A stretch of DNA of 64,000 bases, from NCBI GenBank assembly GCA_049325335.1, contig JBMOMC010000001.1:32001-96000 (forward strand), read 5' to 3'. How positions within the stretch are numbered: position 1 is the stretch's first letter; each line of letters starts with the position of its first letter. The stretch is from Nitrospirota bacterium. Its GTDB lineage: Bacteria > Nitrospirota > Nitrospiria > 2-01-FULL-66-17. A program made the position numbers and the translations under genes. The notes under the pieces are model-generated. The model was given only the letters and a program-made list of their open reading frames with translations, did no database searches and was not told the DNA's origin. Below, piece by piece: positions 17,623 through 30,183 of the stretch.

Positions 17623-18777
17623 TCAATCCTCGCGGGAATCATCCAGGACCACGAGATTGTCGCAATGGATGACCTCGTCATAATATTTGTATCCCAATCG
17701 TTTTGCAATCTCGGACGTTTTGAGGCCGCAAATCTTCGCCACGTCCGAGGACGAGTAGTTGACCAGCCCACGCGCCACCACTCGGCCGGCGGAATCCAGA
17801 CACGCCACCGCGTCGCCCGCGGCGAATTCCCCCGACACCTTGGTCACGCCGGAGGGCAACAGGCTTTTCCCGGAATCCACCACCGCCCGCACCGCGCCCG
17901 CGTCCAGCCACACCTGGCCGGAGACCCGCACCGCATGCGCGATCCAGCGTTGCCGGCTATTTAAGCCCCGGGCGCGCGGGAAAAACATCGTGCCCACCGG
18001 TTCGCCCCGCAGCGCACGGTTTAACTCCCCGGTGCGATGACCGCTGACGATGATGGTTGCGGCTCCGCACGCGGCCGCGCGTTTGGCCGCCGCGAGTTTG
18101 GTCACCATCCCCCCGGTCCCCTCGCTGCGGCTCGACCCGCCCGCAGCGCGCTCCACCTCGGGCGTCACCCGCTCCACGTTGACCAACCGCGCGGCCGCGG
18201 GATCGCGGTGCGGATCCCCGGTGTACAAGCCGTCCACATCGGACAGGATGACCAAGAGATGCGCGTCGATCAACCCGACCACCAAGCTCGCCAACGCATC
18301 GTTGTCCCCGAACTTAATTTCATCCACCGAGACCGTGTCGTTTTCGTTGATGATCGGGACCACGCCGAGGCCCAACAACGTCAGCATGGTATGGCGCGCG
18401 TTGAGAAATCGCGTGCGCCGCGAGAGGTCATCGCCGGTCAACAGAACCTGCGCCACGTGCCGTTTGTGGCGCGCGAAGGCCCGTTCATACGCCCACATCA
18501 AGCGGCTCTGTCCGACCGCGGCCGCGGCCTGTTTGAGCGGCAAACTCTTGGGACGTTCGGTCAGTCCCAGCGGCGCCAGGCCGGAGGCGATCGCGCCGGA
18601 CGACACCATCGCCAGTTGGTAGCCGTCGGCCGCGAGCGCGGCGCATTCGCGCGCGAGCGCGCCGATCCGTCGGACGTTGATCCCGCGCGCGTGCGACGCC
18701 AGGACGCTGCTGCCGACCTTGATCACCACGCGCCGAGCGCGGCTCAACACGGACTGTCTTTGGAATGGACCCGTCAC
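17623..18777 (-). CDS. proB: Glutamate 5-kinase
   Basis: [36 protein letters not shown] domain. Confidence 0.97.
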
Positions 18778-19826
18778 CGCGTGTCCGAAGATATGGCCGC
18801 GTCGGGCGCGTTCACCGCCGATGCCGACTGTTCCGCGCGGGACACACGGGAGCCCACCGCCCGCAACAACGCGTCGATCCCTTGCCCCGTGGCAGCGGAG
18901 ACTTCAAAATACGGCCAACCGCGCCTGCCGCAGTACTCGCGCAGGACATCCACCGCGCCGCTGCCGGCCGCGTCCAGTTTGGTCGCCACCACCACGAACG
19001 GTTTGGCCGCGAGTTCAGGGCTGGTCAGCGCCAACTCTCGCCGCACGGACTCCATGTCCTCGACCGGCCGTCCGCCCGCCGCATCCGACACGTCCACCAG
19101 ATGCAACAAAAAAGCCGTGCGCTCGACGTGACGGAGAAATTGAATGCCCAACCCCTTGCCTTCGTGCGCGCCTTCGATCAGCCCCGGAATATCCGCCGCG
19201 ACAAAACTCCGGCCTTCGGCCCACGTGACCACCCCGAGCGCGGGTTCCAACGTCGTGAACGGGTACGCCGCGATCTTGGGCCGCGCGGCCGAGATCGTGG
19301 ACAACAAGGTGGATTTGCCCGCGTTCGGCAACCCCACCAAACCGACGTCCGCGAGCAATTTCAACTCCAGCGTCAGGCTGCGCTCCTCGCCCGCCCCGCC
19401 GGGCTCGGCAAACGTGGGGGCCTGACGCGTGGGCGTGGCGAAGTGCTGGTTGCCGCGTCCGCCGCGTCCGCCACGGGCGACCACGAGTTCCTGATCGGCC
19501 GCGATCAAATCAGCCAACACCTCGCCCTGGGACGCGTCGCGCACGATCGTGCCGACCGGCACGCGGATGATCAGATCTTCGCCGCGTTTTCCGCTCTGGT
19601 CCTTCCCGCGGCCGTGTTCTCCTCGTTGCGCCGCGTACAGCCTGCGATAGCGAAGATCTAATAAGGTATGAAGTTGGGGGTCGGCCCGGAGAATGACGCT
19701 GCCGCCGTGGCCGCCGTCGCCGCCGTTGGGGCCGCCGCGGGGGACAAAGGCTTCGCGACGGAAGCTGACGCATCCGTTTCCGCCGTCACCGGCCTTGACG
19801 TGAATGGAGAGATAGTCGACGAACAT
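18774..19826 (-). CDS. obgE: GTPase ObgE/CgtA
   Basis: MFVD, Gly-rich Obg domain, [19 protein letters not shown]. Confidence 0.98.
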
Positions 19827-19892
19827 ACCAGGCAGAGGCGCGAATCGCCGACCAATTTCGACGGGGCGCGCCGGCCCCGTGTAGCCAAGGGG

Positions 19893-20153
19893 TTACGCGG
19901 AGACGGGGTAGACGCTCACGCGTTTGCGATCGGTGCCTTTTCCTTCAAAGGTGACCACGCCGGCGATCTTGGCGAACAACGTGTCGTCCCCGCCGCGACC
20001 CACGTTGAATCCGGGGTGGAACTTGGTTCCGCGCTGGCGAACCAAGATGGAGCCCGCCGTCACGACTTGGCCGCCGTACCGCTTGACGCCCAACCGTTGG
20101 GCGTTGCTGTCGCGCCCGTTTTGAGTCGATCCCTGCCCTTTTTTATGCGCCAT
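19893..20153 (-). CDS. rpmA: 50S ribosomal protein L27
   Basis: [20 protein letters not shown]. Confidence 0.99.
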
Positions 20154-20171
20154 ACGTCCTCGTGTCGCCCG

Positions 20172-20486
20172 TTATGCCGCGGCGATCTGCGTAATTTTAA
20201 TGGTCGTCAGTTCCTGGCGATGGCCCCTAGTCTTGCGGTGATTCTTGCGCCGTTTCTTTTTAAAAGCGATCACCTTGCGCCCGCGAGTCTGCGCCACCAC
20301 CTCCGCGGCCACACGCGCGCGCTCCACCACCGGCGCCCCGAGCACCAGCCCCTGGCCGCCCTCGACGGCCAATACACGATCAAATTCCACCGTGGCGCCA
20401 ACCGGTTGATCCAACCGCTCGATCTGAACCAGCTCACCCGGCGCCACCCGGTATTGCTTGCCGCCCGTTTCAATCACCGCGTACAT
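20172..20486 (-). CDS. rplU: 50S ribosomal protein L21
   Basis: MYAVIETGGKQY...GHRQ; start trimmed. Confidence 0.98.
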   Translation of the reverse strand: MYAVIETGGKQYRVAPGELVQIERLDQPVGATVEFDRVLAVEGGQGLVLGAPVVERARVAAEVVAQTRGRKVIAFKKKRRKNHRKTRGHRQELTTIKITQIAAA

Positions 20487-20524
20487 AAGGCCTCCCCAGC
20501 GCAATCCAGTGAAATAAGCTGAAT

Positions 20525-20554
20525 TTTTTAGCACGGGGCATGGCTTAAAGTCAA
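20525..20554 (-). promoter_or_regulatory. Putative promoter of the rplU-rpmA-obgE operon
   Basis: TTGACT-18-TAAAAA with an extended -10 TG. Confidence 0.45.
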
Positions 20555-20793
20555 GCAGCCGCTGATCGGCAGCCGCGAATCGGAGATGGCGACGTCATTC
20601 GCGACACCGCGCCACCTAAGCGCCTCGGATGTCGAACGGAGGACGCTGGCGTCGATCTTGGCATCCTCCGCCGAGCCATCGAACGACGCGAGACCACGGC
20701 ACGGATTCAACAAACGGCCAGCGTGGAAGCGATTGCCGATTGTTGTCGGGTGTTGTCGGAACGACTTAAGGTACGAGAACCCGTGTGAACCGA

Positions 20794-22266
20794 TCAGCCC
20801 GACACCGTGGCCACTGTTTCGGTTCCGGGAAGAGCGACAGGGGAACCGGGCGCTGGGTGGCCGACCTCGCGCGCGATCCGGTCGGCAAGCTGGAGTCCGT
20901 GGGTCAGACAGTCTCGGACCGAAACGCCGCGCAGGTAGTTGCCCGCCAGGTAGAGTCCGGGGAGCGGGGTCAGGAGACGGTCGATGGCGGCCACGCGCGC
21001 GGCGTGACCGATGAGATACTGCGGGATCGCACGCGGGTGACGGACGACGCGGGCGAATTCCGGCCGCCCCGCGAGCCCCACGAGGCCGCGTAGCGCCTCG
21101 ACCGTCCGCCCCACCAGTTCCTCGTCGGTCCACTTCAGCACGTCGTGATCACGCATGCCGCCGAGATAGTTGGTGAGCAACACTCGGCCTTGTGGCGCGC
21201 GATCCGGATACACGTTCGAGCTCCACAGCGATCCCAGGATCGGCAGTTCCTCGCGTTTCGGCACCAAACAACCGGAGCCTTCCGGCAACCGGGGGCAGGC
21301 GTCGCGACGTACGCCCAGGTGCACCAAGCCGACCGGCGCATACGGGATTTGTTCGAGCTGATCCGCCAATAACGGGGAGAGGTCGGTCGTGAGTTTGGCC
21401 GCGACGTCCGCGGGCGTGGCGATCACAAGACGATCCGCGACCAGTTCGCGCGGCTGGCCGCCGACATCCACCCGCGCGAGAAATCGCGCAATGCCGTCGC
21501 GGACCTCTCGGCGCACGCCCAGCACCCTCGCGCCGGTGACCACCCGCTCGCCCAGAGCGGCGCGTAACGCCTCCGGCAAGCGCCCCACCCCGCCGCGGAA
21601 CGAAAAGACCTGGAGCGGACGCCGCGCGCGGCCTTGTTTCATTCTCGTGCGCAGCATGCCCCACACCACGCTCCCGTATTCGCGCTCCAGGGCTACGAGT
21701 TGGGGAAAGCTACTGGACATGGACAAATCATCGGGGTTCCCGCCGAAGATTCCGGCCACGAACGGTTCCACGCCGTAGTCCACCATCTCCGCGCCGAATC
21801 GGCGCCGAACAAACGCGGCCACGCTTTCATCCGACCGCGACTTGGACGAGGGGATCAGGGGTTCGGCCAGCGCGCGCAGTTTGGCCCACGGTCCCCACAA
21901 GGGCGAGCGCGGAACGTCACCCAACCGCGAGGGCACTGGAACCAGCGCGCGGTGTTTGACCAGATACCGGCGGCGGGTGAATGCCTGCTGGAACAGCCGT
22001 TCGTTTTCGAGGCCCAGCTCACGGCACAACCGGTCAACGGCCGGGCTCAGATTGAGCAGGCTGTTGGGGCCGTTTTCAACCAGATACCCGTCCGGCGTGC
22101 GTTCGCTGTGCACGCAGCCGCCCACGCGGGCGGCCTGCTCGAGCACGGTGACGCGCCAGCCAGATTGCGCCAAGCCATACGCGGTTGCCAGGCCGGACAC
22201 GCCAGCGCCGATGACCACTACTTGGTGTTCAGGTTGCACGGTCCAGATCCTCGTTCTGAGGACCAC
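20794..22266 (-). CDS. hemY: Protoporphyrinogen/coproporphyrinogen oxidase (HemY type)
   Basis: GAGVSGL FAD motif, E.GPNS, AIPQY..GH, GNY..GVSV.DC. Confidence 0.92.
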   Translation of the reverse strand: MVLRTRIWTVQPEHQVVVIGAGVSGLATAYGLAQSGWRVTVLEQAARVGGCVHSERTPDGYLVENGPNSLLNLSPAVDRLCRELGLENERLFQQAFTRRRYLVKHRALVPVPSRLGDVPRSPLWGPWAKLRALAEPLIPSSKSRSDESVAAFVRRRFGAEMVDYGVEPFVAGIFGGNPDDLSMSSSFPQLVALEREYGSVVWGMLRTRMKQGRARRPLQVFSFRGGVGRLPEALRAALGERVVTGARVLGVRREVRDGIARFLARVDVGGQPRELVADRLVIATPADVAAKLTTDLSPLLADQLEQIPYAPVGLVHLGVRRDACPRLPEGSGCLVPKREELPILGSLWSSNVYPDRAPQGRVLLTNYLGGMRDHDVLKWTDEELVGRTVEALRGLVGLAGRPEFARVVRHPRAIPQYLIGHAARVAAIDRLLTPLPGLYLAGNYLRGVSVRDCLTHGLQLADRIAREVGHPAPGSPVALPGTETVATVSG

Positions 22267-22337
22267 GCCCCTCGGGTCGTCGCAACACCGAGGAAATCGT
22301 GTACGTCATCGCCGTTACCGGATGATAACGCACGAGG

Positions 22338-22366
22338 ATTAGAAATGAATCCGAAAGGAAAGTCAA
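22338..22366 (-). promoter_or_regulatory. Putative hemY promoter
   Basis: TTGACT-17-TCTAAT. Confidence 0.55.
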
Positions 22367-22392
22367 GCGACGCCGGAACGAGACCGCTCCGG

Positions 22393-23643
22393 CTATTTGT
22401 TCATCGATTCCAGGAATTCACGATTGGTCTTGGTTCCGCGGATCTTGTCGAGCAAGAACTCCATGCTCTCCACCGTGCTGAGTGGGCTGAGCACCTTGCG
22501 GAGGATCCACATCTTATTCAGATCGTCCCGCTCGACCAACAACTCTTCTTTACGGGTGCCGGATAAATTGATGTCGATCGCCGGGAAAATACGCTTGTCC
22601 GCCAGTTTACGGTCCAAGTGTAACTCCATATTGCCGGTGCCCTTGAACTCCTCGAAAATCACGTCGTCCATCCGGCTTCCAGTGTCGATCAAGGCCGTGG
22701 CCATAATGGTCAGGCTTCCGCCGTTCTCGATGTTGCGCGCCGCGCCGAAGAATCGTTTGGGCCGCTGCAACGCGTTGGCGTCCAACCCCCCGGACAGCAC
22801 CTTGCCGCTCGGCGGCGCGATTGTATTGTAGGCACGCGCCAGACGCGTGATGCTGTCGAGCAGGATCACCACGTCACGACGGTGCTCGACCAGCCGCTTG
22901 GCCTTCTCCAGGACCATCTCCGCCACCTGCGCGTGCCGTTGCGGGGGCTCATCGAACGTGGAACTCACGACCTCGGCCTTGACTTGTCGCTGCCAATCGG
23001 TGACTTCTTCCGGCCGTTCGTCGATCAGGAGCACGATCAGCGTGATTTCCGGGTGATTTTTCATGACCGCTTTTGCGATGTTTTGCAGTAACACGGTCTT
23101 CCCGGTACGGGGAGACGCCACGATCAATCCGCGCTGGCCTTTCCCGATCGGCGCCACCAACTCCATCACCCGGGTGGAAATGTCGTCGCCGCCCGGGGCT
23201 TCGAGTCGAACCTTCTCCATCGGATATAGCGGCGTGAGGTTGTCGAACAAAATTTTATCGCGCGCCACTTCCGGATCTTCAAAGTTGATCTTCTCCACTT
23301 TGAGCATCGCGAAGTACCGTTCGCCTTCTTTGGGCGGACGGACTTGGCCCGACACCACGTCGCCGGTGCGCAGGTTAAACCTGCGGATCTGTGACGGCGA
23401 GATATAGATGTCGTCCGGGCCCGGCAGATAGTTGTAATCCGGGGAGCGCAGGAAGCCGAACCCGTCCTGGAGCGTCTCGAGGACCCCTTCGCCGTAAATG
23501 GTCCCGTTCTTCTCCGCCTGCGCCTGAAGGATGGCGAAGATCAACTCCTGCTTGCGCAGATTGCTCGCGCCTTCGATCTTGAGATCCTTGGCGACTTCGT
23601 TGAGGTCGGCGATCGTCTTCTCTTTGAGTTCGCTTAGATTCAT
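22393..23643 (-). CDS. rho: Transcription termination factor Rho
   Basis: [44 protein letters not shown] before the ATG at 23643. Confidence 0.99.
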
Positions 23644-23877
23644 GGGGTCTCCTGCGGGCCCAAGGTCATGCCGCGCCGCATCATGTCGCACGCGACCCGC
23701 GTCGCGTCCACGTCATCATGCCTCCGGCGTCGGAAATGACGTTGCTTCGTGTAGTGGTTAATTCGTCCTACTGCAAAATCCGTTGGTCTTCAACGCGTCT
23801 TTGGGGATTGATTCGGATGTCCGTGCCACCGCGACAGTAAATTGGGGTTAACGCCTGGAAGAAACAGAACCGTTGTG

Positions 23878-23906
23878 AGTATACGAAGCCTCATGACAGT
23901 TGTCAA
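23878..23906 (-). promoter_or_regulatory. Near-consensus sigma70 promoter of rho (about 230-nt leader)
   Basis: TTGACA-17-TATACT. Confidence 0.8.
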
Positions 23907-23933
23907 ATTGCCTCCGACCCGGCCGGCGGCGGC

Positions 23934-24116
23934 TTACACGATATCGCGCGCCTTCACCGTCTTGCGGCCGTCGGCGCGCGCGCGTTCGATCGCGTCGAGA
24001 CACATTTTTTCAACGCGCTGACTCAACGCGTCGAGCGTCTCCGCCGATGTATTAAAGTCCGCTTTTTCACGGACCAACCGTTTAATTTTCGACGACACCA
24101 CCAACATCTCCGCCAT
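23934..24116 (-). CDS. Bacterial histone-fold protein (Bd0055/HBb-like, 60 aa)
   Basis: MAEMLVVSSKIKRLVREKADFNTSAETLDALS...ARADGRKTVKARDIV: histone L2/alpha3 signature RKTVxxRDI; strong GGAGGAGG RBS. Confidence 0.9.
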   Translation of the reverse strand: MAEMLVVSSKIKRLVREKADFNTSAETLDALSQRVEKMCLDAIERARADGRKTVKARDIV

Positions 24117-24150
24117 ACGCGCCTCCTCCCGGGTTTCGTGACTCGTTGCG

Positions 24151-24747
24151 TTACACAAACAGTGAAATATCGCTGCTCGACGCGAATTCCAAAAACGTGG
24201 CCGCGCCGACCGGCTCCTGCAAGCCGTCGATCAAGTCCTCGCGCTTGATGTTCATCATGTCCATCGTCATCTGACAGGGCCACAATTTCACGCCAGACTC
24301 CTTGGCGACGTCCATGAGTTCCGGCAGCGAGGCAATGTGTTTTTGTTTGATGGTCTGCTTCATCATCAATGTGGCGAGTCCCGTCATGCCGGGCAACGCG
24401 CCCACCAAGTTGGGTATCGGCATCGGCATCGCCGGGTTGGCCACCGGCACGAACTTGAGGTTCTCAACCCCGCCCTTTTTGACGATCTGCAACCCGAAAA
24501 ACGTAAAAAACACGCCGACCTCCATATCGAGCGCGGCCGCGGTGGTCGCCAAGATCAACGGAGGGTAGGCCGCGTCCAGCGTGCCCTTGGACGACACAAT
24601 GGCGATCCGCTTCGGTCGGGTCTTGCGCGCTTCGGCGTCGAGCGCCGCCTTCACCTGCGCGCGCACCAGTTCCTCGAGTCGGTGCTCGGCCAACTCCCTG
24701 ACCTTTGCGGCCACCACTTGGTCGAGTTCTTGCGACGTCAATCCCAT
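24151..24747 (-). CDS. DsrE2/DsrE-like sulfur-relay (peroxiredoxin-like) protein
   Basis: SKGTLD.AYPPLILA.TAAA, FFTFFG, CQMTMD, VGAATFL. Confidence 0.85.
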   Translation of the reverse strand: MGLTSQELDQVVAAKVRELAEHRLEELVRAQVKAALDAEARKTRPKRIAIVSSKGTLDAAYPPLILATTAAALDMEVGVFFTFFGLQIVKKGGVENLKFVPVANPAMPMPIPNLVGALPGMTGLATLMMKQTIKQKHIASLPELMDVAKESGVKLWPCQMTMDMMNIKREDLIDGLQEPVGAATFLEFASSSDISLFV

Positions 24748-24796
24748 GTTCACTCCTCGGCAACCGCCGGACGACGAGCCGAACGGTTGCGCCGGC

Positions 24797-25042
24797 CTAC
24801 TTGGTCTTGCGGATAAAAAACGTGTACACGCCGGGTTCCTCGCGCGTCTCCAGGATTTCGTGTCCCGTGCTCTTGGACCACGCCGCCATATCGGGCTTAG
24901 AGCCCGGATCAGTCGCGATCATTTGGAGCACTTGCCCGAGGGACATCTGTTCAAGCGCCTTCTTGGTTTTGATCACCGGCAGAGGGCAGTTCAGCCCCTT
25001 ACAATCGAGCACTTGCGAAACCGTGTATGCCGCCCCCATCAT
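24797..25042 (-). CDS. tusA: TusA/SirA-family sulfur carrier
   Basis: LDCKGLNCPLPVIKTKK, ATDPGS..D. Confidence 0.93.
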   Translation of the reverse strand: MMGAAYTVSQVLDCKGLNCPLPVIKTKKALEQMSLGQVLQMIATDPGSKPDMAAWSKSTGHEILETREEPGVYTFFIRKTK

Positions 25043-25093
25043 TCGACCTCGGTATGTGTCACGTTCAGTGGACCAATCGATCTCGCGATATCG

Positions 25094-25360
25094 TTACCAC
25101 ACGGTCACGGTCGCGGCATTGACCACCATGCCGGCGATCTCGTCGTACCCGACTTGCCGGTGCGGGGTGGTGATCCCGCGGGCCTGCGCGTCTTCGTCGT
25201 TGACCCAGACCGTCGTCCCGGCGGGCGGCTCCGCGAACACGCCGTCCTGCACCAACACCACGTCCACGGGTGATTCGCGGCCCTGCGCCGCGATCACGGC
25301 CCAAGCCACGTCATCGGCGCGGCGGCGCACGATGTGGAGCGCGCGACCGCCCGTCACCAC
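25094..25360 (-). CDS. DsrH/TusB-like protein
   Basis: LVQDGV, D..ARG, Y.EI..MV...VTVW. Confidence 0.75.
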   Translation of the reverse strand: MVTGGRALHIVRRRADDVAWAVIAAQGRESPVDVVLVQDGVFAEPPAGTTVWVNDEDAQARGITTPHRQVGYDEIAGMVVNAATVTVW

Positions 25361-25698
25361 GGAATCACCACATCGGACGCGGCCAGAAGTGCGGTGAGGT
25401 CCGCGCGCTCGATCGGCTGCACGCGGGCGCGCACCCCCCCCCGATACCGGACGGGCAATGCGTCGCGCTCCACCACTTCACGAATATGACACGCATCGAA
25501 CAACTCCAGGGAATCGGTCAAGCCCGGACGCTGAATGCGGTCGCTCTGTAACGCCAACGCCGCGCACGCGCCGTCGCCCGTGTACGCCACGGTCACGCGA
25601 TGATTGGACAATGTCATGCCCAACGCCATACGCAGCGCTTCATGCACCCGTCCCGTGGTCAGCGGGTTGCTCCGAACAGCGACCACGACGTGTTTCAC
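25354..25698 (-). CDS. DsrF/TusC-like protein
   Basis: EALRMALG, GDG motif, C-terminal DVVIPW; lies between the dsrE-like and dsrH-like genes. Confidence 0.7.
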   Translation of the reverse strand: MKHVVVAVRSNPLTTGRVHEALRMALGMTLSNHRVTVAYTGDGACAALALQSDRIQRPGLTDSLELFDACHIREVVERDALPVRYRGGVRARVQPIERADLTALLAASDVVIPW

Positions 25699-25704
25699 CG
25701 GTGA

Positions 25705-26043
25705 TTACGACCCAAACGCGAGAAATCGATCAGCTCGGTCAACAATCCGGGACAACTCGTACTGGCTGGCAATTTCAGTCCCAGGGTACAGGTCGGCCTC
25801 GGAGAGCCCCCGGGCTTCAGCGGTCACTCCGCACACCGACACCTTGGCCCCCATACTCATCACGGTCGGAAACGCCGTGTACGCCCGCTTGGGCGACGAA
25901 AACGCTTGCGCATGATACACGCCATCACCCATCAAGAACAATTCGACCTCGTGTCCCTCTTTTAACCAGGCCTCGGAGAGCTTCGCCACGAGATAGCCGT
26001 CCTCATAATCGTCGCTACTCGTCAACAACAGGCCGATTTTCAT
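25705..26043 (-). CDS. DsrE/TusD-like sulfurtransferase
   Basis: GHEVELFLMGDGVY, active-site C in VCGVTAEARG, ADRFLAF. Confidence 0.85.
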   Translation of the reverse strand: MKIGLLLTSSDDYEDGYLVAKLSEAWLKEGHEVELFLMGDGVYHAQAFSSPKRAYTAFPTVMSMGAKVSVCGVTAEARGLSEADLYPGTEIASQYELSRIVDRADRFLAFGS

Positions 26044-26048
26044 GGCAA

Positions 26049-26078
26049 ATTGTATGATGGCCCGAAAACGTTTGTCAA
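26049..26078 (-). promoter_or_regulatory. Sigma70 promoter implying a leaderless dsrE-operon mRNA
   Basis: TTGACA-18-TACAAT ending 5 nt before the ATG; no Shine-Dalgarno. Confidence 0.65.
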
Positions 26079-26161
26079 CAGAATCCCGCAGAGAAATAAT
26101 TCGCGTCTATGATACAATGCGCTGGCGCACGACGCGCGCGACGACCGGAGGGACCCGTCTT

Positions 26162-26893
26162 ATGGCAGCGCAACCGACGTTTCAAGAACAACTCCTACGC
26201 GTGATGGACCGGAAGGACCACTGGGCGTGGAAAGCGTTTTCCAGCGGAGCCGTCACCGTTGACCAACTCAAAATTCACTTTCAGCAAGAATACGTGGTCT
26301 ACGTGCGCGACTTCCCCGTGTTCCTGGCGCGCGTCCACGGGAAAAATCCTCCGATGCCGGTTCGCCGCGCATTGGCGGAAAATCTTTACGAAGAGGAAAC
26401 CGGCGGGCTCACGCGCGGCCGGGCCCACCCGGAAATGTTTTTATATCTGATGGAAGGCCTGAAATTTGCCGCGCGGGACTTCGAGGAGATCCACCTGCTG
26501 CCCGAAAGCGCGGGATACCGACGATGGCTCGACCAAGTCACCGCCGCCGCGTCCTGGATCGAGGGCGCGGCGGTGACCACGATCTTCGTGGAGGGGAGCG
26601 TGCATGAACGCGCGGTCTTCGACGACTCGGTTCGGGAGGAGCCCAACATCGAGCGGAAAATCGCGGAACACCCGTTGGTCAAATACCACGGAGTCCCGCC
26701 CCGTCACTTGGAACTGGCCCGCGCGCACGGCGCCATCGAAGGGCTGCACCGGCGCGACGCGTGGAAGATCGTGTTGGACCACGCCACCACCCCTGAAACG
26801 CAGCAACGCGTGCTCCACGCCATGGAGCGGTCGCTGGAGCTGTGGTTGGCGTATCGGGATGGGGTCGCCAAGGCCTGCGGCATCACCCGATAA
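26162..26893 (+). CDS. Heme-oxygenase-like diiron enzyme (CADD/PqqC/TenA superfamily)
   Basis: ENLYEEE..G....H, VEG, H...E..H diiron ligand pattern; GGAGG RBS; start trimmed to MAAQPTF. Confidence 0.8.
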   Translation: MAAQPTFQEQLLRVMDRKDHWAWKAFSSGAVTVDQLKIHFQQEYVVYVRDFPVFLARVHGKNPPMPVRRALAENLYEEETGGLTRGRAHPEMFLYLMEGLKFAARDFEEIHLLPESAGYRRWLDQVTAAASWIEGAAVTTIFVEGSVHERAVFDDSVREEPNIERKIAEHPLVKYHGVPPRHLELARAHGAIEGLHRRDAWKIVLDHATTPETQQRVLHAMERSLELWLAYRDGVAKACGITR

Positions 26894-26897
26894 CGTG

Positions 26898-27079
26898 GGA
26901 GCCTGTCCATGAGTGGCCATCTGCAGCGTTGTCACTTCGGCTTCGCCACCTGTCGAGGAAGCAACGATTGCATTCCGCGCCTCTGGCGCGGTGCAGGTTC
27001 CGCCTTGCGACCTACCGCCAGAAATTCAAAAGTCGGAAGTCCCCGAAGGGGGCAGCTGACGCGCTCCTGAACAGGCTCC
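26898..27079 (+). mobile_element. MITE-like element, copy A (TIR GGAGCCTGT...ACAGGCTCC)
   Basis: Terminal inverted repeats; internal CCATCTG..CGTTG and CGCCTTGC motifs shared with copies B and C. Confidence 0.75.
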
Positions 27080-27116
27080 GGTTCCCGGGAACCTCAATCC
27101 ACTCCGAAAATCTCTC

Positions 27117-28037
27117 GTGCCCACACCCACCACAATCGGGATAGCCTGCGCCGTGGTCACGTGCGTGACCTGGGGCGTGGCGGATTATCTGGCTGCGCGG
27201 ATTACGCGCCAGGTCGGCGAGGTCGTTGCGCTACTGCGCGTCCAACTGGTGGGCGCGCCGGTCCTGATCCTCTCGTGGGTGATCCTGCGCCCCCCGCTGC
27301 CCGGCGCCGCCGACCTCGTGTGGATCAGCGCGGCGGCCGCATGTTTTCTGGTCGGGTATGTAAGCTTTTTCTATGGGCTGCGGGTGGGCGTCATCTCCCT
27401 CGTGAGCCCGATCAGCAGCGCTGGCGCTTTGATCCCGGCGCTTGCGGGCATGATGCTGTTCGGCGAAGTGATCTCCGGCGTTCGTTTCGGCGCCGCGGCG
27501 CTGGCGTTGTTGGGCGTTGTGGTTCTCACCGCCGATCCCGCGGCCATCGGATCGCTGGCCGCGGAGGGCCGGCGAAACGGTGTTAAGGCCGGGATCGTGA
27601 CCCTGGTGGCGTGGGGGTCCGGAACCGCACTGCTCTTGCCCGCAATCCGGCATGTCGGCGCGTTCGCTCCCATCGCCGTCCTACGTCTGGAAATTCTGGC
27701 GCTGCTCGCCGGGTGGTGGCTCGCGCGCCGCGCGATCGTCCAACACACGCCCGCCGCGCCCGGTGTCCCGGCCCGCGATACGCCGTTCGCCGGCGGGTGG
27801 AACCTTGTGGTCCCCGCCGCGTTGCTCGACCTGACGGCTTTCTTTGCGTACGGGGTCGCGTTGCGAGACGCGCCGGCCGTGGTCGCGGCGCCCATTGCGT
27901 CCGCGTATCCGTTGGTGACCATTTTGATCGCGCGGCATCATCTCAGCGAGAGGTTGTCGGGCCGCGAGTGGCTCGGCGTCGGCCTCACCCTCGCCGGCGC
28001 CGCCTTGCTCGGCGCGGACTGTTGCGATGCGCCCTGA
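27117..28037 (+). CDS. EamA/DMT-family transporter
   Basis: About 10 hydrophobic segments in two repeats; WG.ADY, SPISS, L.ERL. Confidence 0.88.
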   Translation: MPTPTTIGIACAVVTCVTWGVADYLAARITRQVGEVVALLRVQLVGAPVLILSWVILRPPLPGAADLVWISAAAACFLVGYVSFFYGLRVGVISLVSPISSAGALIPALAGMMLFGEVISGVRFGAAALALLGVVVLTADPAAIGSLAAEGRRNGVKAGIVTLVAWGSGTALLLPAIRHVGAFAPIAVLRLEILALLAGWWLARRAIVQHTPAAPGVPARDTPFAGGWNLVVPAALLDLTAFFAYGVALRDAPAVVAAPIASAYPLVTILIARHHLSERLSGREWLGVGLTLAGAALLGADCCDAP

Positions 28038-28099: not shown

Positions 28100-29494
28100 G
28101 TGTCCAAGCTCGCCGTAGAACGCAGATTATTCGGCACCGATGGGGTCCGTGGCACCGCCAATATCGAGCCCGTCACCGCCGAAACCGCCATGAAATTGGG
28201 GCGGGCTGCGGCGTATCTCTTCAAAAAGCACCACACCGGCCACCACCGCTTCGTCATCGGCAAGGACACCCGTTTGTCCGGGTACATGATCGAGAGCGCG
28301 TTGACCGCGGGCGTGTGCTCCATGGGGGTGGACGTGCTCCTCGTGGGTCCGATGCCCACCCCGGCCATCGCGTTTTTGACCAAGAGCCTGCGCGCGGACG
28401 CGGGGGTGGTGATTTCCGCGTCACACAACCCGTTCGAGGACAACGGCATCAAGTTTTTTTCGCACGACGGTCTGAAACTGCCGGACGGCGTTGAACAGGA
28501 GATTGAGAACCTGGTGTTCTCCGGCGCGATCGAACACGAACGCCCGACCGCCCGGGAGATCGGCAAGGCGTTCCGCGTGGACGACGCGGACGGCCGGTAT
28601 ATCGAATTCGTGAAGAACACGTTGCCCAAGGGCGTGCAGTTCGACGGCCTCAAGGTCGTGGTAGACACGGCCAACGGCGCGGCGTACAAGGTCTCGCCGA
28701 CCGTGTTGCGGGAATTGGGCGCGGAGGTTATCACCATCGCGGACCGCCCGAACGGGACCAACATCAACCAGCATTGCGGCGCGCTGTACCCGGAAACGCT
28801 CCAGAAAGCGGTAGTCGCGCACCAGGCCAACATCGGCATCGCGCACGACGGCGACGCGGATCGCGTGGTGTTCTGCGACGAACAAGGCAAGATGGTCCAC
28901 GGGGACCAGATCCTCGCGTCGTGCGCGCTGGAGTTGGAACGCGCGGGTCGCTTGGCCGGGCACACCGTGGTCGCCACCGTGATGAGCAATCTAGGCTTGG
29001 AGCTGGCGTTGCGACCGGCCGGGATCTCGCTCGTTCGCACCGCGGTCGGCGATCGATACGTGTTGGAGCGTATGCTCAAAGACGGGTACGTCTTCGGCGG
29101 CGAGCAGTCCGGACACGTCATCTTTCTCGACTACAACACCACGGGCGACGGCCTGATCACCGCGCTTCAGGTCCTGGCCACGATGGAACGCACGGGCAAA
29201 TGTCTGTCTGAATTGGCCGCATGTATGACCGTGTGCCCGCAAGTGCTGGTCAACGTGCGGGTCGCGGAACGCCGTGATTTGAACGCGTTCCCCGGCTACA
29301 CGACGCTGCTGTCGGACTTTGAGCGCCGCATCGGTCCGCAAGGCCGCGTGTTGATCCGCTACTCGGGCACCGAACCGTTGCTGCGCGTGATGCTCGAAGG
29401 CGAGGACTTCCACACGATTTCGTCGGTGGCCGAGGAACTCGCGGACAGCCTCCGAACCCTCTTGGGCGCTCCTCCCGCAACCGGAGCCGCATGA
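28100..29494 (+). CDS. glmM: Phosphoglucosamine mutase
   Basis: [44 protein letters not shown]. Confidence 0.97.
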
Positions 29495-30183
29495 CCACGC
29501 TGCTGACCGTCGCGTTGCTCCTCGCCGTAACGTGGCCCGGTCCGTCCGCGGCCGCTGACGCGTACGACGCGGTGCTCAACAGCCCCCACAACTTCTTCGC
29601 GCGTTCCGAGTTTCCCGTCGGCCGTCGGGTCTGCACCGGGTGTCACGCCGACGAGCCGGCGCCGATGACTCCGGACGCCGCGCCGCCAGCCGAGAACGAG
29701 ATCGCCCCGGCAGGGGACGCGTTGCCCCCACCCCTGTGGCAACGCGAGGCCGCAGCCTATACGGTCTCGGCGGTTCGATCGACCGACGCGTCGAACGCCT
29801 GTTTGGGGTGTCACGACGGCGTGCTGGGCGGGGAAATCCACCAGACCGTCGCGCGCGGCGCCAAATCGTTCGACCACCCCAATAACGTGGTGTACCCGCG
29901 TCGCGCCAACGGCCAGTTCGTGCCGGAGCGGCCCACAGTCAACGTGTATCGGTATTGGTCGATTCCTGATCTGCGCGACGGCGCGTTGGTGTTGCCCACC
30001 GGGCCGACATCGACCCGCCTCACGTTGCCGGCGGCGGACCAGACGAGTTCCGGCGCGCGATTGGTCCGCACCTCGCAGGGCATGGTCCAGTGCGACAGCT
30101 GCCACGACCCGCACGATAACGCGAGCGCGCCGTTCCTGCGCGCGCCCGCCCAGGATCTCTGCTTCATCTGTCACGACCGCTGA
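29491..30183 (+). CDS. Secreted tetraheme c-type cytochrome (doubled CXXCH family)
   Basis: Signal peptide; [23 protein letters not shown]. Confidence 0.88.

Follow-up and report, generated by a model that had tools for sequence, protein, structure and literature searches.

Does the short frame on the minus strand of this contig encode a genuine bacterial histone, and if it does, how would its product act on DNA in a cell that also carries conventional nucleoid proteins? The preliminary description of the window, by which we mean the whole 64,000-nucleotide stretch that was analysed, had proposed a 60-residue protein with a strong ribosome-binding site and had assigned it to the Bd0055/HBb type of histone. 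Translation of the window reveals an intact gene of 60 codons followed by a TAA stop, read on the minus strand from 24116 to 23934, and the encoded protein terminates in DGRKTVKARDIV; the plus strand over the same interval is an unrelated frame. An AGGAGG lies 5 nt before the ATG, and for this reason we place the start at ATG 24116 and not at the upstream TTG (24158) of the mechanical 74-aa open reading frame. At all 42 loci examined, GGAG or a longer match occurs within the last 16 nt before the histone start, a count made without a background control. A second histone was not found in the 3.25-Mb, 45-contig genome by tblastn and a six-frame profile search, the next profile match having an E value of 2.8. 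The features discussed below are collected in Table 1.

Table 1. Positions in the window of the histone gene, its neighbors, and the associated signals.
Feature	Position	Strand	Remarks
Sigma-70-like site, TTGACA-18-TACAAT	26049..26078	minus	head of the sulfur-relay cluster; also in L021-L024 and L035
Five-gene sulfur-relay cluster	24151..26043	minus	possibly co-transcribed with the histone gene
DsrE-like	25705-26043	minus	upstream of histone
DsrE/TusC-like	25354-25698	minus	upstream of histone
DsrH/TusB-like	25094-25360	minus	upstream of histone
TusA	24797-25042	minus	upstream of histone
DsrE2	24151-24753	minus	ends 34 nt before histone
Shine-Dalgarno GGAGGAGG	24122..24129	minus	5 nt ahead of the histone ATG; read from the sequence
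Histone gene, 60 aa, Bd0055/HBb ("bacterial dimer", α3-truncated) type	23934..24116	minus	sole copy found in the genome
Sigma-70-like site, TTGACA-17-TATACT	23878..23906	minus	27 nt after the histone stop; 11/12 matches; predicted rho promoter
rho	22393..23643	minus	290 nt after the histone stop; PF07497, PF07498, PF00006

Comparison of the gene with six close orthologues gives dN/dS values of 0.018, 0.063, 0.091, and 0.094 in four cases, and in the other two dS is saturated, so that these give no ratio. The frame is intact in each of the six genomes of the same family, and of the 63 candidates in a protein search, 62 reach E≤0.001, the query being one of them. The histone gene is real and under strong purifying selection. 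The one observation that might speak for a chance open reading frame or a decayed gene is that the protein matches the histone-fold profiles below their curated Pfam and NCBIfam cut-offs (PF00808, 19.7 bits vs 21.4; NF043032, 33.3 bits vs 50). However, the match to a solved histone at E 4e-21, the dN/dS values below 0.1, and the persistence of the intact frame across the family effectively rule such an origin out. The profile search that had been suggested as a check recovers both histone families, neither at a curated score. These sub-cut-off scores are also the reason that annotation can miss the gene, as the preliminary description had anticipated; a precomputed Pfam domain is present on only 1 of the 62 related proteins listed.

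The closest PDB matches are Bd0055/HBb (8FVX, 8CMP), to which residues 1-60 align without a gap at E 4.3e-21, with 38/60 residues identical (63%) when counted by hand from the printed alignment. The start and end given for Bd0055 in the preliminary description match the PDB chain. Weaker matches are seen with the MJ1647-type histone 8BDK (5.6e-8), HTkC (3.5e-7), HLp (2.6e-5), and archaeal nucleosomal histones (0.008-0.1). An AlphaFold2 model built from a 41-row alignment has a mean pLDDT of 87.4, with helices at residues 2-19 and 25-48 and a three-residue α3, and Foldseek places HBb chains at ranks 1-5 (TM 0.82-0.85), followed by HTkC and HLp (TM 0.76-0.77). The α3-truncated family is defined by a shortened α2 and an α3 of only 3-4 residues, and the "bacterial dimer" is a category of that family defined through sequence clustering (both as described in PMC11390915). 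Members of this category would also be expected to bind and bend DNA without sequence specificity and to be abundant, nucleoid-located, and essential. The predicted model and the ungapped alignment to Bd0055 display the short α2 and the 3-4 residue α3. Identities to the Bdellovibrio-like proteins at L058-L060 number 34-36 over 59 aligned residues; those to four singlets with R45 and N49 that end at D+1 number 27-28, and 32 over 56. Judged by these alignments, the window protein clusters with the Bd0055/HBb "bacterial dimer" histones. The hallmarks of archaeal nucleosomal histones (a full-length α3, the tetramer histidine, and scores above the family cut-offs) were not seen in the protein, which has A48 and scores below the cut-offs, and neither a ZZ nor a doublet architecture was found in what is a stand-alone 60-aa open reading frame with its own ribosome-binding site and stop.

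Other histone forms appear in the surrounding searches. One relative of the same class carries a second histone with a Cys/His-rich, ZZ-like N-terminal region (L101:760-1299, G426:C72); long-frame ZZ-like matches occur in four genomes of the class, and none was found in the genome of the window. Another same-class relative carries a divergent second singlet histone of about 63-72 aa with 43% identity to the query (L102:48-266, G033:C54). The copy at L055:747-923 is interrupted by a stop after codon 32 and shares its Manganitrophaceae-titled bin with an intact histone (L027); it is either a pseudogene or a product of faulty assembly or binning. Doublet histones in which two Bd0055-like folds follow in tandem (129-132 aa) are found mostly in Bacteriovoracaceae-titled records (L074, L076, L079, L080, L082, L083, L087, L090-L093, and L097). 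Records titled Klebsiella pneumoniae or Bifidobacterium breve (L065, L088, L096) contain histones that group with Myxococcota rows; probably the titles are wrong or the contigs misbinned.

The residues through which HBb contacts DNA have been described (bioRxiv 10.1101/2023.02.26.530074): one interface is formed by K12, T23, S24, A25, K52, T53, and R57, a second by T8, S9, and K10, with a clamp between R51 and D58 together with D49, and a dimer core of V11, L31, I35, L38, and I59. Nine of the ten DNA-contact residues are identical in the window protein, the single change being T8 to S, and the R51-D58-D49 clamp is wholly kept; the dimer-core positions are I11, L31, V35, M38, and I59. The protein accordingly carries R51, K52, T53, and D58 in an RKTxxxD arrangement, the S9-K10 motif, and the basic α1 residues K12, R13, and R16. 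In a comparison of 38 Nitrospirota sequences (the window and 37 Nitrospirota loci, with L055 dropped for its premature stop and L077 for its position at a contig end), no variation is seen at S9, K10, T23, S24, R51, K52, T53, R57, and D58, and the pI has a median of 9.4. The histidine of archaeal tetramers is absent from position 48 in all 38 sequences.

An AlphaFold dimer model had also been put forward as a check, and a four-copy homodimer prediction scores 0.88 against 0.06 for the best control, with at least 91% contact agreement between runs and a partner pLDDT of at least 87. The mark applied to this score was reached by 20/30 proteins solved as pairs and by 1/23 solved as single chains, counts that are only roughly applicable here since a four-copy job with a custom alignment differs from the calibration. 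The interface named in the prediction is the ordinary histone dimer between two chains, and the pass may for this reason reflect memory of the solved HBb dimer. With this qualification, a homodimer formed through antiparallel α2 helices is predicted.

The reading that we consider reasonably probable is that the protein is a Bd0055/HBb-type homodimer that binds and bends DNA without sequence preference, and that it probably works in the nucleoid alongside HU/IHF. Models predict its fold and its pairing into a dimer, and we infer DNA binding, bending, and the cellular role from HBb. By this analogy, two L1-L2 sites, each composed of T23, S24, and A25 of one chain and K52, T53, and R57 of the other, plus K12, would grip the phosphate backbone, as would the paired α1 starts (S8, S9, K10), while the R51-D58-D49 clamp would hold loop L2 and the dimer as a whole would bend the DNA irrespective of its sequence. 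Since no histidine is present at position 48, the dimers would not be expected to stack into a hypernucleosome of the archaeal type.

Whether such a dimer bends DNA or lines up along it is a point on which the two groups with Bd0055-DNA structures disagree (bioRxiv 10.1101/2023.02.26.530074; PMC10627809). The same dimer could coat straight DNA as a nucleohistone filament, contacting it edge-on through L1-L2 with one dimer per 2.5 bp and with N-terminal tails exchanged. This mode was seen in the first Bd0055-DNA crystal (PMC10627809), and the window protein retains both the hydrophobic N-terminus and the residues of L1-L2, with His48 absent from 38/38 sequences. However, the later HBb crystal and solution work reports the second interface and bending (bioRxiv 10.1101/2023.02.26.530074), and S9 and K10 of that interface are invariant in 38/38 sequences, so that we hold the filament to be unlikely. 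A different departure from a bending dimer is suggested by position 45. According to PMC11390915, bacterial dimers lack both of the face-to-face (FtF) residues, Arg and Asn (R48 and N52 in HMM numbering), which map to positions 45 and 49 on the basis of the PDB alignments and the HLp residues given in PMC12701072. At these positions Bd0055 has S45 and D49, the window protein has R45 and D49, and the crystallised HTkC has R and E; R45 of the query aligns with the FtF dyad arginine R49 of HLp and with the arginine of HTkC. Two dimers might on these grounds close into a ring-shaped FtF tetramer like those of Leptospira HLp and Thermococcus HTkC, wrapping ∼60 bp. Across the 38 Nitrospirota sequences position 45 is R or K in 33 (R in 17, K in 16), and in 32/38 the chain stops 2 residues past D58, compared with 6 residues past it in the three Bdellovibrio-like proteins. 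Of the FtF signature, the window protein has the dyad Arg but neither the Asn, having D49, nor a C-terminal carboxylate directly following the clamp Asp, since its chain ends at D58+2. HTkC itself lacks the Asn, so the signature is not absolute; as HTkC has Glu at the 49-equivalent, an Asn there is not essential. Against a tetramer, the residue at 49 is Asp where FtF histones have asparagine, only 1/38 sequences combines R45 with N49, none of the 38 ends one residue after D58, and position 45 varies among R, K, Q, and N, unlike an interface residue. HBb is, moreover, far closer to the window protein (E 4e-21, TM 0.82-0.85) than HTkC and HLp are (E 3.5e-7 and 2.6e-5; TM 0.76-0.77). The four-copy model gives confident contacts for one chain pair only and leaves residues 45, 48, 49, 57, and 60 unnamed, which is to be read as uncertain rather than excluded and speaks neither for nor against a tetramer. 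On balance, a face-to-face tetramer appears quite improbable. These relationships also bear on the earlier statement that histones of the Bd0055 type are found in both Bdellovibrio and Leptospira: it holds for Bdellovibrio, but the characterised Leptospira histone, HLp, belongs to the face-to-face tetramer subfamily (PMC12701072).

The surroundings of the gene speak to its expression. The order on the minus strand is DsrE-like, DsrE/TusC-like, DsrH-like, TusA, DsrE2, histone, and rho, followed by a flavin oxidoreductase that we take to be of the HemG/HemY kind. This order is kept in 7/7 loci of the family to which the window belongs, the window included, and in 5 of the 41 loci L021-L061; it is absent from 13 loci of other families with 1.5-kb flanks. 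No dsr, tusA, or rho neighbors were found at the other 36 of these 41 loci, several of which lie on short contigs. Outside the closest relatives the neighbors of the histone vary, and it often stands alone. A functional tie between the histone and the sulfur relay, for instance through Cys39, which is present in 36/38 Nitrospirota sequences, was considered and set aside, because the neighborhood is confined to the closest relatives and Bd0055 has the same Cys.

Several further features of the region were observed. The sulfur-relay cluster diverges from a gene for a CADD-like iron redox enzyme (26159-26893, plus strand), an arrangement kept in L021-L024 and L035, and back-to-back sigma-70-like sites lie between the two at 26049-26100. 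In four of seven aligned close relatives (L023, L024, L035, L006) a GC-rich inverted repeat, which could be a terminator or an mRNA-stabilising stem, occurs just past the dsrE2 stop; it is missing in the window, where the dsrE2-histone gap has shrunk to 34 nt. In other lineages (L031, L032, L040, L041, L044) the histone adjoins proB-obgE, with rpmA-rplU in four of the five, all four genes being named from sequence recognition. The proB-obgE block lies 3.4 kb downstream of the histone in the window (17623-20534), and this recurrent proximity hints at an old chromosomal position. Farther along the plus strand, the 230-aa product of 29491-30183 carries CXXCH motifs in duplicate and is a small cytochrome c of the multiheme kind (PF09699).

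The near-consensus sigma-70-like site past the histone stop has both hexamers conserved in 7/7 aligned close relatives, which argues that rho likely has its own promoter; with a conserved promoter-like site between the two genes, a shared histone-rho transcript need not be invoked. On the upstream side, a sigma-70-like site within 250 nt of the histone was found at none of the six closest loci, and the nearest strong site on the histone strand is that at the head of the sulfur-relay cluster, ∼1.9 kb away. High expression of the histone in this lineage therefore draws no support from a promoter of its own. With four HU/IHF genes also in the genome, the histone-based chromatin put forward in the preliminary description stays a conjecture. 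In the window's family the sulfur-relay transcript may extend to the histone as its last cistron, or the histone may use a promoter of a type that is invisible to the scan, which is blind to promoters of another sigma type. Across a wider set, promoter-like sites upstream of the histone occur at 13/40 loci, compared with 5.7 expected from base shuffles. Rfam gives no match at E≤1 in 20000-27500, and the sole terminator-like match, inside dsrE2 at 24211-24199, is within chance (1 found vs 0.7 expected).

These results raise the possibility that the histone is present but minor: a modest-level accessory or condition-dependent DNA-binding protein made at the end of the sulfur-relay transcript, with HU/IHF organising the nucleoid. 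The 34-nt gap to dsrE2, the position of the nearest strong upstream site at the cluster head, the lack of a sigma-70-like site in the 250 nt upstream at all six closest loci, and the four HU/IHF genes of the genome are all in line with such a role. However, the dsr/tusA/rho neighborhood is not conserved (again, none was found at 36/41 loci, several on short contigs), the histone elsewhere mostly stands alone and shows promoter-like sites more often than the shuffles predict, the ribosome-binding site is strong and selection tight, and a promoter of another sigma type would escape the scan. Bdellovibrio, too, has HU, yet Bd0055 ranks 12th among 2,125 proteins and comes first in the nucleoid fraction (PMC10627809), so that a major role for the histone would be compatible with four HU/IHF genes. 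We thus regard a minor role as rather unlikely and retain the DNA-bending nucleoid protein as the preferred reading.

How widely the gene is shared was addressed in a scan with one genome per species, in which 196 of 326 candidate stretches were confirmed and the best 80 of the 196 were kept. The top 37 of these 80 loci are all Nitrospirota-titled (Nitrospiria, Ca. Manganitrophaceae, Troglogloeales), as are 39/80 overall, in agreement with the Nitrospirota host guessed from the sequence at the outset. The histone is present in 22/41 related genomes, including 6/6 of the same family. A profile search matches 51/301 genomes of the class, which represent 9 of its 19 families (6/6, 8/8, 1/1, 14/15, 1/2, 6/7, 8/9, 1/1, and 5/6); in three of these families there are second, weaker matches as well, and the count for one genome rests on a 15-residue fragment. 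By the same search the histone was not found in the searched genomes of the other ten families, including the two largest (0/157 and 0/66), and in a phylum-wide draw 12/401 genomes match, all of them in the class of the window. The list of genomes searched by Hocher 2023 includes Nitrospira defluvii, moscoviensis, and inopinata, and among the matches listed its histone table has two "Nitrospir" rows, neither of which is a Nitrospira (PMC10627809). As three Nitrospira genomes were searched and none appears in these rows, the largest histone-free family is probably that of the nitrifying Nitrospira. L048, a locus titled "uncultured Nitrospira sp.", has a histone, though the tree places it in a pair with a row that is Manganitrophaceae-titled.

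Two histone trees were built, both from only 60-68 columns, with sampling that favoured query-like proteins, and neither included L055 (premature stop), L077 (contig end), or any of the full-length doublets. The window protein falls with L035, the locus of OGW62712.1, in a starred 6-row clade (99/97). In the 79-row tree three Bdellovibrio-like proteins are nested among the Nitrospirota in a 96/91 clade, together with two long-branch archaeal rows. An AU test on 76 rows (L094, L098, and L099 removed) gives no grounds to reject the Nitrospirota as one clade (p 0.60), and we consequently do not propose which way a transfer between Nitrospirota and Bdellovibrio would have gone. The trees are compatible with descent inside Nitrospiria, without proving it.

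One could go further and propose that nine Nitrospiria families have inherited histone chromatin and that their histones, through the basic residue 45 and the short tail, form face-to-face-like tetramers linking dimeric benders to tetrameric wrappers. Taken jointly, we consider this improbable. If it were true, these uncultured or barely cultured families, which include Ca. Manganitrophaceae and Troglogloeales and whose histones are the nearest kin of Bd0055, would join Bdellovibrionota and Leptospirales as a third lineage of bacteria in which histone chromatin is inherited, and the large nitrifier families would be without it. One Ca. Manganitrophus species has been grown in co-culture. A Ca. 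Manganitrophus protein (P0048, of the NKE72072.1 cluster) is 73% identical to the window histone, so that such a co-culture would make histone abundance testable. A non-predatory lineage with histone-bearing and histone-lacking sister families also offers a natural comparison for the benefit of a histone beside HU.

As a single gene, the locus matters little, for the family has solved structures and a tabulated close relative. Some relatives are already named histones in public sources, and Supplementary Table 1 of Hocher 2023 holds two Nitrospirae rows, one of which is of the Bd0055 type (PMC10627809). "Nitrospir" is absent from the main texts of PMC10627809, PMC11390915, and PMC12701072, and no paper on histones in Nitrospirota was found in literature searches that covered few subscription papers. 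The Bd0055/HBb histone family is thus already known, with an 83%-identical relative tabulated since 2023; the slight novelty lies in its persistence across whole families in part of Nitrospiria and in the question posed by Arg45.

Among known systems, the window protein most resembles Bd0055/HBb of Bdellovibrio bacteriovorus (8FVX, 8FW7, 8CMP, 9EZZ, 9F0E), with which it is collinear over residues 1-60 at 38/60 identities and shares the short α2, the one-turn α3, RKTxxxD, the R51-D58-D49 clamp, S9-K10, and A48 in place of a tetramer histidine. It differs from Bd0055/HBb in being four residues shorter at the C-terminus, in having R45 for S45 and R13 for K13, in its Nitrospirota host, and in the placement of its gene between a sulfur-relay cluster and rho, and it is known here from sequence and models. 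The closest tabulated protein is OGW62712.1 of Nitrospirae bacterium RIFCSPHIGHO2_01_FULL_66_17 (Hocher 2023, Supplementary Table 1, row 52; PMC10627809), which is identical to the protein of L035. It likewise has 60 aa, is 50/60 identical (83%), and shares the dsrE2-histone-rho-hemG order, but it differs by ten substitutions and by a dsrE2-histone gap of 169 nt vs 34 nt in the window. The FtF histones HLp (Leptospira perolatii, 9QT0) and HTkC (Thermococcus kodakarensis, 9F2C) share the α3-truncated fold and the 45-equivalent Arg, whereas their identity to the window protein is 33-40% and the window protein has neither Asn49 nor a chain end one residue past the clamp Asp; HLp and HTkC are proven tetramers, and HLp wraps ∼60 bp (PMC11390915, PMC12701072). 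The archaeal HMfA, HMfB, and HPhA (PF00808, NF043032) have in common with the window protein the histone fold, the RKT loop, and the RD clamp, but the match is weak (E 0.03-0.1) and below the cut-offs, and the window protein has a shorter α2 and α3 and no tetramer histidine.
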